Source: Candidatus Omnitrophota bacterium (lineage in GTDB: Bacteria > Omnitrophota > Gorgyraeia > Gorgyraeales > Gorgyraeaceae). From it: 64,000 nt of DNA. Positions 17,547 to 19,562 of the stretch are shown here, piece after piece. Below the pieces are notes generated by a model, which made no database searches, had not been told where the DNA came from, and saw only the letters and a list, made by a program, of their open reading frames with translations. Both the position numbers and the translations under genes were made by a program. The stretch's first letter is position 1. Each line of letters starts with the position of its first letter. The DNA is taken from the NCBI GenBank assembly GCA_043814965.1, contig JBDRJN010000033.1, positions 1,379 to 65,378 on the forward strand, read 5' to 3'.

Positions 17547-18569
17547 ATGCCAGAATTAAGAAAAGATCCAGTTATAGGCAGATGGGTTATAATCTCAGTC
17601 GAGAGGGCTAAGAGGCCGAGTGACTTTAAGGTACTTCATCCTGATGATGAAGGGTCTTATTGTCCATTTTGCGAAGGCCATGAGAAGGATACTAGCCCAG
17701 AGGTCTTTGCAATAAGAAAGCCAGGCACAAAGAAAGACGGCCCTGGCTGGGATGTGAGGATAATCCCCAGTATATTTCCGAGATTGGATATCAAGGGAGG
17801 CCTTGATAGAAGAGGTGTCGGTATGTATGATGTCATGAACCCTGTAGGAGTCCATGAGATAATACTGGAATCACCGGACCATGTTACTGATATATATCAA
17901 TTGCCTACAGATAAGATAGAACTCATAGTAGATGCGAATGTCAGCAGGATCATTGAGCTCGAAAAAGACCCCAGACTTAAATATTGCCTTCTTTTCAAGA
18001 ACCATGGACTTCGCGCGGGAGGAAGTAAAGTCACAAAACATCTTCGCTCACAACTCATAGCCACGCCTGTTACGCCTACTCGCGTAAAGGAAGAGCTCAA
18101 GGGAGCCAGGTTTTATTATAAATACAAGGATAGGTGTATATTTTGTGATATCATAGACCAGGAATTAAATAAGGAAGACAGGGTCATAGTCGATACGGAT
18201 AATATCATTGCCATAGCTCCTTTTGCTTCACGGTTTCCATTTGAGATATGGATACTTCCAAAAAAACATTCTTCGGATTTTATAAATATAAAAAGAGAAG
18301 AGACCAAAGACCTGGCAGTAGTGATACAAAAAGTATTTAGTAAGCTATCAAAGGCCCTTAATGACCCTCCCTATAATTATATGCTTCACACTGCTCCTTT
18401 CAGGAGGTCAAATAGGCCTGGATATTGGCATACGATAGAAGAAGATTATCACTGGCACATAGAAGTCATGCCAAGGATCACTCAGATAGCTGGCTTTGAA
18501 TGGGGCTCGGGTTTTTATATCAATCCGACCCCGCCGGAAGAAGCAGCAAAATATTTAAGGGAGATATAG
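17547..18569 (+). CDS. GalT-like HIT-family nucleotidyltransferase paralog 1 (HxHxQ altered to HxRxQ)
   Basis: CPFCEGHE zinc motif and conserved fold. The segment FKNHGLRAGGSKVTKHLRSQ has Arg where paralog 2 has the second His of HTHTQ. Confidence 0.6.
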   Translation: MPELRKDPVIGRWVIISVERAKRPSDFKVLHPDDEGSYCPFCEGHEKDTSPEVFAIRKPGTKKDGPGWDVRIIPSIFPRLDIKGGLDRRGVGMYDVMNPVGVHEIILESPDHVTDIYQLPTDKIELIVDANVSRIIELEKDPRLKYCLLFKNHGLRAGGSKVTKHLRSQLIATPVTPTRVKEELKGARFYYKYKDRCIFCDIIDQELNKEDRVIVDTDNIIAIAPFASRFPFEIWILPKKHSSDFINIKREETKDLAVVIQKVFSKLSKALNDPPYNYMLHTAPFRRSNRPGYWHTIEEDYHWHIEVMPRITQIAGFEWGSGFYINPTPPEEAAKYLREI

Positions 18570-19562
18570 ATGTCTCAGTTAAGACGCGATCCCGTAACAG
18601 GGCGATGGATAATAGTCAATATATCAAATCCTAAAAAACCCAGTCAGTTTGAGTTGAAACCTCAGGTAAAAAAAGGAGGGGTATGCCCTTTTTGTACTGG
18701 TAATGAGGCAATGACCCCGCCTGAAGTCGATGCTATAAGAAAGCCTCATTCAGACCCTGATACTCCAGGATGGTCGGTCAGAATAGTCCCAAATAAATTC
18801 CCTGCGCTGACAATGGAAGGAAACCTGGAAAAGAGAGGTGTAGGATTGTATGATATGTCTCATGGGCTTGGCGCTCATGAGGTCGTGATAGAGACCCCCA
18901 ACCACAATAAAGACATGGCTGATCTCAGCGAAGAAGAGATCAAGGATATCCTGCTTAAATATCGATCCAGGACGATTGCCTTAGAAAAAGACGATAGATT
19001 TAAATATGTCCTTATATTTAAAAATCATGGAGAACCCGCGGGCGCGTCGCTTGAGCATACACATACTCAGATAGTAGCGCTGCCTATTGTCCCAAAAAGG
19101 GTCACAGAGGAACTCAAGGGCGCTATTAATTATTTTGGGTATAGAGAGAGATGTGTCTTTTGTGACATGATATCTCAAGAGCTGCAGGACGAAGTAAGGA
19201 TAGTCGCTCAAAATGATAAGTTTATATCATTTTGTCCATTCGTGTCTCGTTTTCCATTCGAGACATGGATAGTCCCAAAGCCGCATAGCCGAGATTTTAA
19301 GGCTATAGATGATGGATCATTGATCTATATGGCCTCGATCTTGAAAGATTCGCTTCTTAGAATAAAAAAAGTCTTGAAAGACCCGCCATATAATTTTATA
19401 ATACACACTGCTCCTGTGAGAGACGGGATCAATGACGAGTATCATTGGCATCTAGAGATAATGCCGAAATTGACGAACGTAGCTGGCTTTGAATGGGGCT
19501 CGGGTTTTTATATCAATCCGACATCTCCTGAATTTTCAGCTAAATATTTAAGAGAAGTTTAA
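18570..19562 (+). CDS. GalT-like nucleotidyltransferase paralog 2 (galactose-1-P uridylyltransferase or ADP-glucose phosphorylase family), canonical HxHxQ
   Basis: CPFCTGNE...[18 protein letters not shown]. About 50% identical to the upstream paralog. Confidence 0.7.

Follow-up and report, generated by a model that had tools for sequence, protein, structure and literature searches.

Introduction

Class I galactose-1-phosphate uridylyltransferases (GalTs) and the Arabidopsis protein At5g18200 are homodimers with inter-subunit active sites, in which the neighboring subunit completes the substrate pocket (bioRxiv 10.64898/2026.09.13.751320). In human GALT, one chain contributes K334–Q346 to the glucose-1-phosphate (hexose-1-phosphate) site and the other contributes Q188 and N173; Arg48, corresponding to R28 of Escherichia coli (Ec) GalT, is provided by the chain other than that of Q188 and His186. 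In the UDP-glucose complex of the E. coli enzyme, R28, R31, G159, and S161 touch the substrate (PMC5081055). This geometry assigns a trans role to the N-terminal arm and the C-terminal loop and a cis role to N77, S161, and H166. The complete class I sets comprise N77, S161, H164, H166, and Q168 in cis, and R28, R31, and the 311–323 loop in trans. PMC6329318, citing McCoy et al. 2006, identifies At5g18200 as an ADP-glucose phosphorylase. Here we describe two adjacent GalT-like genes, P1 and P2, in a 64,000-nt stretch of Candidatus Omnitrophota DNA (contig JBDRJN010000033.1, positions 1,379 to 65,378; hereafter the window). The upstream product, P1, carries Arg in place of the nucleophilic His, and P2 has lost the arginine arm. 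The two products probably constitute an obligate heterodimer with one composite working active site.

Family Membership and Fold of P1 and P2

P1 and P2 are abutting open reading frames on the + strand in the same frame, the TAG stop codon of P1 being followed immediately by the ATG of P2, and a GGGAG Shine-Dalgarno sequence for P2 sits within the 3' end of P1 (Table 1). Both proteins matched the two GalT Pfam domains above the gathering score, P1 with 26.9 bits for PF01087 (cut-off 22.1) and 47.1 bits for PF02744 (cut-off 29.2), and P2 with 58.6 and 36.1 bits, respectively. Against the GalT equivalog model NF008724 (PRK11720; cut-off 448), both scored far below (112.6 bits for P1, 135.7 bits for P2); against TIGR00209 (cut-off 102.1), P1 fell below the cut-off (99.4) and P2 just above it (118.3). 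The closest solved relative of both was At5g18200 (1Z84), with HMMER E values of 3e-69 for P1 and 1e-75 for P2, the latter match placing P2 in the family by sequence. Identity to At5g18200 was 39–40%, and that to E. coli GalT was 27–28%. For P1, an AlphaFold2 model (predicted template modeling score, pTM, 0.80) retrieved 1Z84, 2H39, and 1ZWJ as the top Foldseek matches (E = 1e-27, TM 0.71–0.80), followed by 6K5Z, 1HXP, and 5IN3 (the Pyrobaculum, E. coli, and human GalTs), confirming the GalT fold that a first-pass annotation of the window had ascribed to it.

That annotation had also reported a CPFCxGxE zinc motif in both frames and an identity of about 50%. The motif is indeed present in both, and BLASTP gave 49% identity over the full length (E = 5e-129). 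Its central claim was that the KHLRSQ motif of P1 carries Arg at the nucleophile position and keeps the first, zinc-binding His. In our HMMER alignments, R167 of P1 (K164-H-L-R167-S-Q169, nt 18036–18053, with the Arg codon CGC at 18045–18047) lies opposite the nucleophilic His of 1Z84, where the mutant 2H39 has Gly; the flanking zinc-ligand His and Gln are in register, gap-free on that side. In none of the alignments did P1 have a His opposite the nucleophile. A basic insertion of two residues further marks the motif region of P1. The structural zinc site (CxxC plus two His), formed by C39, C42, H112, and H165 in P1 (H163 in P2), was invariant in all groups compared below. HxHxQ, whose second His is the covalent acceptor, is present in P2 (H-T-H-T-Q) and is replaced by H-L-R-S-Q in P1. 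From these alignments, P1 appears to be a structural but non-catalytic member of the GalT family (HIT branch III) with the class I fold.

Table 1. Features of the P1/P2 locus, in coordinates of the window.
Feature	Position (nt)	Strand	Basis or remark
P1, putative upstream non-catalytic GalT-like subunit ("R-type"), 340 aa	17547..18569	+	homology, alignment, AlphaFold2
P2, putative downstream catalytic GalT-like subunit ("H-type"), 330 aa	18570..19562	+	homology, alignment
P1 N-terminal arm PELRKDPVIGRWVIISVERAKRP, with R20 (17604-17606) and R23 (17613-17615)	17547..17618	+	
P1 zinc knuckle C39-P-F-C42-E-G-H-E46	17661..17684	+	C39 and C42 invariant in all groups
P1 degenerate nucleotide-pocket triplet S75-I76-F77 (N-K-F/Y in partner and singletons)	17769..17777	+	
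P1 motif region G158-G-S-K-V-T-K-H165-L-R167-S-Q169	18018..18053	+	
P1 C-terminal hexose loop, from A315; equivalent to Ec 315-323	18489..18527	+	alignment
P2 N-terminal arm, degenerate; N20 and K23 replace both arginines	18570..18641	+	
P2 intact nucleotide-pocket triplet N75-K76-F77	18792..18800	+	alignment
P2 intact HxHxQ, E162-H163-T-H165-T-Q167, nucleophile His165	19053..19070	+	
43-nt stretch identical in P1 and P2 (hexose-loop codons)	18487..18529 and 19480..19522	+	
Promoter-like site: TTGAAT, 16-nt spacer, TATAAT, TG extension; fmt-P1 spacer	17508..17535	+	consensus 10/12 only
gap (type I GAPDH), third gene of putative P1-P2-gap unit	19580..20590	+	
Intrinsic-terminator-like hairpin, 16-bp stem and T tract, 3' of gap	20630..20666	+	
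glgA, ADP-glucose-type glycogen synthase	20711..22156	+	TIGR02095, 544 bits
GH57 4-alpha-glucanotransferase-type gene	22153..24156	+	4-nt overlap with glgA

Reciprocal Loss of the cis Pocket and the trans Arm

We retrieved 80 loci from different species-level genomes, 57 of which contain a tandem pair of GalT-like genes, and assigned motif classes from the alignment, not by regular expression. The upstream gene of the pair encodes H-x-R-[ST]-Q in 56 of the 57 loci and the downstream gene H-x-H-x-Q in all 57. Twenty single-copy relatives (from Anaerolineae, Planctomycetota, and unclassified metagenome-assembled genomes, MAGs) have H-x-H-x-Q in every case. The R-type was found alone in 3 loci only, the contig ending at that point. 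Columns were then compared group by group with E. coli GalT and At5g18200, using 58 R-type copies, 55 downstream partners, and 20 singletons. The nucleophile position was Arg in 58/58 R-type copies and His in 55/55 partners and 20/20 singletons.

The cis pocket of the R-type has degenerated beyond the nucleophile. At the Ec N77 position, R-type copies carry Ser (54 of 58) or Asn (4), and Asn is found in all 55 partners and all 20 singletons. The Ec D78 and F79 positions are variable in the R-type and are occupied by K and F/Y in partners and singletons. Ec S161 corresponds to Gly in 29 and Ser in 28 R-type copies, and to Ser in 53/55 partners and 20/20 singletons. The trans arm shows the reverse. 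R20 and R23 of P1 are equivalent to R28 and R31 of E. coli GalT and to R48 and R51 of human GALT; the former position is Arg in 58/58 R-type copies, 20/20 singletons, and 1/55 partners (non-basic in 53/55), and the latter in 57/58, 19/20, and 10/55, respectively. The first-pass annotation had regarded P2 as the canonical copy, which holds for its EHTHTQ motif but not for its arm, since P2 has lost the trans arginines that singletons, At5g18200, and E. coli GalT retain.

The mean column entropy summarizes both trends. In the cis pocket, it was 1.10 bits in the R-type, 0.14 in the partner, and 0.18 in singletons, while the trans arm gave 0.13, 2.14, and 0.51, respectively; over the whole protein, the three groups were alike, at about 1.1. 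Invariant everywhere were the zinc ligands, Ec N153, G159, and Q168, the second Cys/His metal site, and the GFEWGxGxY loop, whose F, E, and Y did not vary in any group in the column-by-column alignment. The net charge of the arm averaged −0.20 in partners and +1.95 in singletons, and the R-type carries a 1–2 residue insertion before the motif with a mean of 1.9 Lys/Arg, versus 0 in the other groups. Positive charge thus appears, from these alignments, to have shifted from the trans side (the partner arm) to the cis side (the R-type pocket). The AlphaFold2 model of P1 is of low confidence in segments 1–5, 13–20, 77–87, 89–99, 176–186, and 314–325, which include the arm and the loop; this fits elements that stay disordered until they meet a partner.

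At the hexose loop, P1 and P2 share 43 identical nucleotides (Table 1), despite the 49% protein identity of the genes overall. Long P1/P2-identical stretches occur at the same place in other genomes (42 nt in L027, 33 in L069, 32 in L001, and 29 in L035), and these stretches differ in nucleotides from genome to genome. At identical residues, codon identity within a genome reached 0.583 for the loop and 0.473 for the remainder of the gene, compared with 0.398 between genomes (p = 2e-7 and 7e-17 for these comparisons). This pattern suggests recurrent local gene conversion that keeps the P1 and P2 loops alike.

Natural Single-Chain Fusions of the Two Halves

An exhaustive HMMER search of 1.84 billion representatives yielded 7576 hits at E ≤ 1e-3, of which the best was a 599-aa fusion, P0121. 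Two further fusions, P0271 (596 aa) and P0272 (599 aa), came from independent assemblies, and the three are 52–56% identical to each other. P0121 and P0271 occupy the slot of the gene pair, in the order pgm ... tyrS, fusion, gap, pgk, tpiA, secG. The coordinates are L082 8001–9800 for P0121 and L088 5001–6791 for P0271, with pgm a few genes upstream.

The N-terminal half of all three fusions retains the MSELRK..W..AVERAKRP arm and the AGFEWGTGxYINPT loop. It has been deleted for the zinc knuckle and some 60–70 residues of the nucleotide pocket, and it has no HxHxQ-type motif. A Ser/Lys-rich linker joins it to the C-terminal half, which starts at CPFC without an arm and keeps NKF and GASLEHxHTQ, its own loop being in decay (GFERETEIY, GFELATGSY). 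By sequence, the fusions appear to carry the complementarity of P1 and P2 to completion, in the form of outright deletions. As Rosetta-stone fusions, they provide the best evidence at hand that P1 and P2 would work as one unit.

Conservation of the Arginine and Age of the Duplication

Among the 120 best homologs of P1 (57–77% identical), approximately 105 have H-x-R-S-Q and one has H-x-H-x-Q, so that the Arg is the rule among the orthologs. An NCBI entry identical to the P1 protein is annotated as 'MAG: HIT domain-containing protein [Candidatus Omnitrophota bacterium]'. The gene order in the 57 two-copy loci is always the upstream type, the HxHxQ type, and gap, and the junction of the tandem pair measures −20 to +9 nt in 41 of the 57. 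Both copies are under comparable constraint: the median ratio of nonsynonymous to synonymous substitution rates (dN/dS; Nei–Gojobori, 52 unsaturated genome pairs) was 0.066 for the R-type and 0.065 for the partner, with mean ortholog identities of 0.629 and 0.620, respectively. The Arg is encoded by both codon families (CGC 18, CGT 15, CGG 6, CGA 1, AGG 9, AGA 4), indicating that it was kept through many synonymous changes.

In a bootstrapped neighbor-joining tree, upstream and downstream copies fell into two separate clades with bootstrap values of 90 and 88, respectively. A short stem led to the upstream clade, and the Anaerolineae singletons appeared as its weakly supported sister group. 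P1 is also closer to Anaerolineae singletons (54–59% identity) than to P2 (49%). The duplication that gave rise to P1 and P2 therefore appears to be old. The genes are adjacent paralogs, as the first-pass annotation stated with the term tandem, but the two separate clades speak against a recent local copy.

A single tandem pair, L043 (Black Sea Omnitrophota BS750m-G79), has a His-bearing upstream copy (gene at ~313–1344; HQHTQ, codon CAT at the nucleophile position). The other cis residues of this copy are degenerate as in the R-types (S, I, S, G, and a 1-aa insertion); in the partner gene product, the Ec R28 position of the trans arm is Lys. The Arg-bearing copies alone were not recovered as monophyletic (bootstrap 1), and the L043 upstream copy nests weakly among them. 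Because this nesting is weak, a single His-to-Arg event followed by reversion is indistinguishable from a basal position of L043. The copy may represent either a reversion or an early branch, and the tree is compatible with both.

Proposed Heterodimer

In the proposed arrangement, P2 would supply the cis set, consisting of the zinc site, the nucleotide pocket (N75, K76, F77, and S160), and the nucleophile His165, which would form the covalent nucleotidyl-enzyme; P1 would be unable to form such an intermediate. P1 would supply the trans set, namely the arginine arm (R20 and R23) and the C-terminal hexose loop (GFEWGSGFY). Since the losses are reciprocal, a heterodimer would contain one complete site (P2 cis and P1 trans) and one incomplete site; the reciprocal site, made of the P1 pocket and the P2 arm, would be dead. 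A P1 homodimer would lack the nucleophile and a P2 homodimer the arginine arm, leaving the mixed pair as the only complete combination. The pair would have originated in the old duplication, followed by complementary degeneration of the two copies, and in one lineage both genes would have been fused and the redundant parts deleted. Physical heterodimerization, the dependence of P2 on P1, and the reaction discussed below are what we infer from the sequence comparisons. The constant adjacency of the genes, their abutting reading frames, and the three fusions lend indirect support to a physical complex.

Several observations weigh against this arrangement. The heterodimer is modeled by homology on relatives that are homodimers. 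The hexose loop of P2 itself is still perfectly conserved in tandem pairs, so the putatively dead site has not been fully dismantled. That site has moreover gained about three positive charges in cis, which suggests that it retains some ligand-binding or structural role. In the wider family, stand-alone HxHxQ proteins without an arginine arm occur (P0122, P0147), and loss of the arm is thus no proof of partner dependence; dead copies without an adjacent partner occur as well (P0145, P0149). The AlphaFold2 model of the fusion P0121 did not place the arm or the loop with confidence (pTM 0.58), predicted local distance difference test scores being below 50 at residues 1–53 and 259–299; in the MAFFT alignment of P0121, single-domain homologs were stacked on the C-terminal half and the N-terminal half was covered by three sequences only. 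Finally, substrate specificity would be carried over from a relative that is about 40% identical.

Strict adjacency of the two copies throughout the family is ruled out by the stand-alone proteins P0145, P0149, P0122, and P0147; adjacency is the rule only within Omnitrophota-type loci. P0145 (L085/L086 369–1409) has H-I-E in place of the nucleophile and is followed by the acetate kinase gene ackA, P0149 (L083 1704–2708) has no HxHxQ-type motif, and P0147 and P0122 are encoded in loci L089 and L090. In a set of 141 full-length representatives, for which the alignments are less certain, 13 proteins look trans-kept and cis-lost, and 8 look cis-kept and trans-lost. Similar splits may have arisen more than once.

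Alternative Roles of P1

The first-pass annotation had offered three explanations for P1. Its pseudoenzyme or regulatory partner is supported, in that P1 is conserved, constrained, and non-nucleophilic and lies beside an HxHxQ partner. The other two, a phosphorylase with a different mechanism and simple degeneration, are taken up below.

What the conserved Arg does can be approached tentatively. Arg167 and the basic insertion might pair with the P2 arm as a heterodimer latch, or they might form an allosteric sensor that gates the ADP-glucose/glucose-1-phosphate reaction; on the present alignments, we regard a role of this kind as a speculative proposal. As a latch, Arg167 and the insertion would bind the de-arginylated, partly acidic arm of P2, and P1–P1 dimers would be electrostatically forbidden. 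As a sensor, the P1 pocket would bind a phosphorylated glycolytic metabolite. Hints that the P1 pocket is not inert come from the invariance of Arg over both codon families, the shift of charge from trans to cis, and the Lys of the L043 partner. L043 would fit the latch, because its His-bearing upstream copy is paired with a Lys-armed partner, although it is a single case. A comparable effect has been proposed for human GALT, in which charge repulsion would arise between Q188R and Arg48' (PMC5081055). Whatever the role of Arg, it would not be essential once the two halves are tethered, because the fusion lineage lacks the whole pocket.

A related alternative leaves the heterodimer in place and makes P1 regulatory, with the Arg pocket responding allosterically to a phosphorylated metabolite such as a glycolytic intermediate, Pi, or a nucleotide, much as in the non-catalytic subunits of ADP-glucose pyrophosphorylases. 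Such a role would add to the composite-site explanation, and the two are not mutually exclusive. Besides the invariant Arg and the Lys/Arg-rich insertion, the preservation of Q169, N152, G158, and the zinc-ligand His165 would suit such a site, the P2 loop would still be directed into the P1 pocket, and the genes lie in a putative unit with gap, with pgk and tpiA nearby. However, the rest of the pocket is variable (Ec 78, 79, and 161; 1.10 bits), no ligand can be named, and the fusion lineage has deleted the entire pocket, Arg included, while the gene remains intact, so that a site of this type must be dispensable. We consider this alternative doubtful.

P1 could instead be an independent homodimeric enzyme that uses non-covalent, Arg-assisted direct displacement or acts on another substrate. 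Strong purifying selection, the invariant Arg, the retained zinc site and Gln, and the few divergent dead copies without an adjacent partner would all be compatible with such an enzyme. Against it, the residues equivalent to Ec N77, D78, F79, and S161 have been lost to variable residues without a new conserved set, P1 never occurs without a partner within the phylum (contig ends aside), and the P1-type half of the fusions has lost the zinc knuckle, the pocket, and the motif and kept exactly the trans elements. An independent P1 is thus very improbable, and with a pocket entropy of 1.10 bits versus 0.14 in the partner, the phosphorylase with a different mechanism is likewise unlikely.

In a third alternative, P1 would be a dominant-negative inhibitor that titrates P2 into inactive heterodimers. 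The HIT superfamily offers a precedent in birds, where the HIT-motif-less Asw/Wpkci protein has been proposed to act on Hint in this way (PMC1386693, citing Pace and Brenner 2003), and P1 does lack the nucleophile. Yet it is P2 that has lost the trans arginines and P1 that retains them at near-zero variability, the translationally abutted genes are suited to 1:1 synthesis, and a permanently fused form would make no sense for a titrating inhibitor; we give this alternative hardly any weight.

Finally, a decaying duplicate or a sequencing or assembly error can be dismissed, for which nothing speaks except that CGC and CAC are one nucleotide apart: the identical NCBI entry, hundreds of independent metagenomic homologs with Arg, and a dN/dS of 0.066 without any frameshift or stop rule it out. 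The Arg is neither an error nor a sign of decay, and the phylum-wide conservation refutes the third explanation of the first-pass annotation, simple degeneration.

Gene Neighborhood and Probable Reaction

In the window, the pair is preceded by priA, def, and fmt and followed by gap, glgA, GH57, pgk, and tpiA, extending the glycogen and glycolysis neighborhood of gap, glgA, GH57, and pgk noted in the first-pass annotation. The order across loci is (priA, def) fmt, R, H, gap (glgA, GH57) pgk, tpiA, with gap as the most conserved downstream neighbor of the pair. The neighbors recognized in the 57 two-copy loci were fmt, priA, and def upstream, and gap, pgk, tpiA, glgA, and GH57 downstream; these loci were screened against the window's own proteins only, a screen in which galK and galE are undetectable. 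Within the 64-kb window, galK, galE, galM, glgC, glgB, glgP, and pgm were all missing, which does not imply their absence from the genome. Consensus scans located a promoter-like site upstream of P1 and a terminator-like hairpin after gap (Table 1), suggesting a P1-P2-gap transcription unit.

Several independent cases tie GalT-like genes to alpha-glucan metabolism. In addition to the glgA and GH57 neighbors, a singleton GalT-like gene is located inside a complete GH57-based glycogen cluster (L068 3526–15611) composed of GH57, a GH57 glucanotransferase, the GalT-like gene, CBM48, DUF4912, a GH57 branching enzyme, an 828-aa NTP-transferase/PGM fusion, and GlgA. The representative library also contained fusion proteins of GlgA with a GalT-like domain (P0139) and of GH57 with a GalT-like domain (P0150 and P0243). 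In the euglenid Eutreptiella, P0144 has two HxHxQ GalT-like units in tandem.

With At5g18200 as the closest characterized relative and an ADP-glucose/alpha-glucan gene context, the pair resembles an ADP-glucose phosphorylase in these two respects. The reaction would most likely be ADP-glucose (NDP-hexose, where NDP is nucleoside diphosphate) + Pi ↔ glucose-1-phosphate + ADP, or a similar transfer reaction of alpha-glucan metabolism; for an ADP-glucose-type substrate in particular, we put the chances at about even. The reaction may run in either direction, toward ADP-glucose breakdown or from ADP and glucose-1-phosphate to ADP-glucose and Pi. The pair is probably not a GalT of the Leloir pathway. 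A function as replacement for a missing GlgC was also considered and was not supported, GlgC being present in most Ace Lake Omnitrophota MAGs (PMC8542988 supplement).

The 4-nt overlap of glgA and GH57 (22153–22156) suggests translational coupling. The insertion of these two genes between gap and pgk was confined to one subclade of related loci. The pgk and tpiA genes (24629–26752) are separate and lie 165 nt apart, and the best NCBIfam match of each was the bifunctional PGK/TIM fusion PRK13962, below the cut-off. All recognized genes of the window (1–64000) are on the + strand; GC skew was positive in 32/32 two-kb bins (0.085–0.258), and the cumulative skew rises without a turn. Elsewhere in the window, three consecutive open reading frames (4666–8098; 461, 513, and 159 aa) had no Pfam match at E ≤ 1e-8, the 513- and 159-aa frames lying downstream of rmuC in the bin of lowest GC content (0.32, 6–8 kb). 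A response-regulator receiver protein followed by an HD-GYP-type (HD_5) protein is encoded at 33600–35563, and a DAC-domain (c-di-AMP synthase-type) protein at 59500–60288.

Discussion

GalT-family and HIT enzymes serve as textbook cases of the symmetric homodimer, with two identical active sites at the interface, and P1/P2 would depart from that rule. The singletons with both halves, the tandem pairs with point losses, and the fusions with deletions constitute an unusually clean natural series in which to study how an oligomeric enzyme degenerates in complementary ways (constructive neutral evolution). For annotation, Omnitrophota proteins labeled 'galactose-1-phosphate uridylyltransferase', 'HIT domain protein', or 'DUF4931' would become two subunits of one enzyme, only one of them catalytic. 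The pair would also provide an experimental handle on trans-acting GalT residues, and this bears on galactosemia alleles with dominant-negative action, such as Q188R. If the latch or the sensor proved true, this would be the first regulated, asymmetric GalT-family enzyme, tying glycogen turnover to lower glycolysis in Omnitrophota. Our literature searches turned up neither a heteromeric GalT-family enzyme nor a HIT pseudoenzyme of the P1 kind. The principle of a dead paralog as partner is already known, and it is most likely the split of cis and trans elements between a dead and a live copy that is new for the GalT family.

Compared with At5g18200 (1Z84, 1ZWJ, 2H39), the locus shares the zinc knuckle, the second Cys/His metal site, HxHxQ (in P2), and the GFExGxGxY loop. 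At5g18200 is, however, a homodimer with cis and trans elements on each chain and two equivalent sites, whereas here these elements appear to be divided between two gene products, one of which has Arg at the nucleophile position. Class I GalTs (E. coli 1HXP/1GUP, human 5IN3) have the same fold and active sites across the dimer interface; they differ in sequence (27–28% identity), and the context here is glycogen and glycolysis instead of the Leloir pathway.

Within the HIT superfamily, P1/P2 resembles the avian Asw/Wpkci–Hint pair, in which Asw is a HIT paralog without the catalytic His motif for which a heterodimer with the active relative has been proposed. Asw is proposed to suppress Hint, whereas P1 is predicted to complete the P2 site. 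Another parallel is offered by the non-catalytic subunits of ADP-glucose pyrophosphorylase (the plant large subunit and GlgD of Firmicutes), which likewise pair a catalytic with a non-catalytic subunit in ADP-glucose/glycogen metabolism. Their fold and chemistry are unrelated to GalT (a nucleotidyltransferase that releases PPi), and there the regulatory role of the dead subunit is established, in contrast to the putative one of P1.

Functionally, the pair resembles the trypanosomatid prozymes, deoxyhypusine synthase (DHS) DHSc/DHSp and AdoMetDC/prozyme, in which a dead paralog is needed by an impaired active paralog; DHS also has its active sites between subunits (PMC3663545, PMC5201418). P1 resembles them in combining loss of the catalytic residue, with Arg at the nucleophile position, and purifying selection. 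The prozymes are eukaryotic, encoded by unlinked genes, members of other enzyme families, and experimentally shown; the P1/P2 case, as read from sequence, is bacterial, operonic, and phylum-wide, and it has a naturally fused form.

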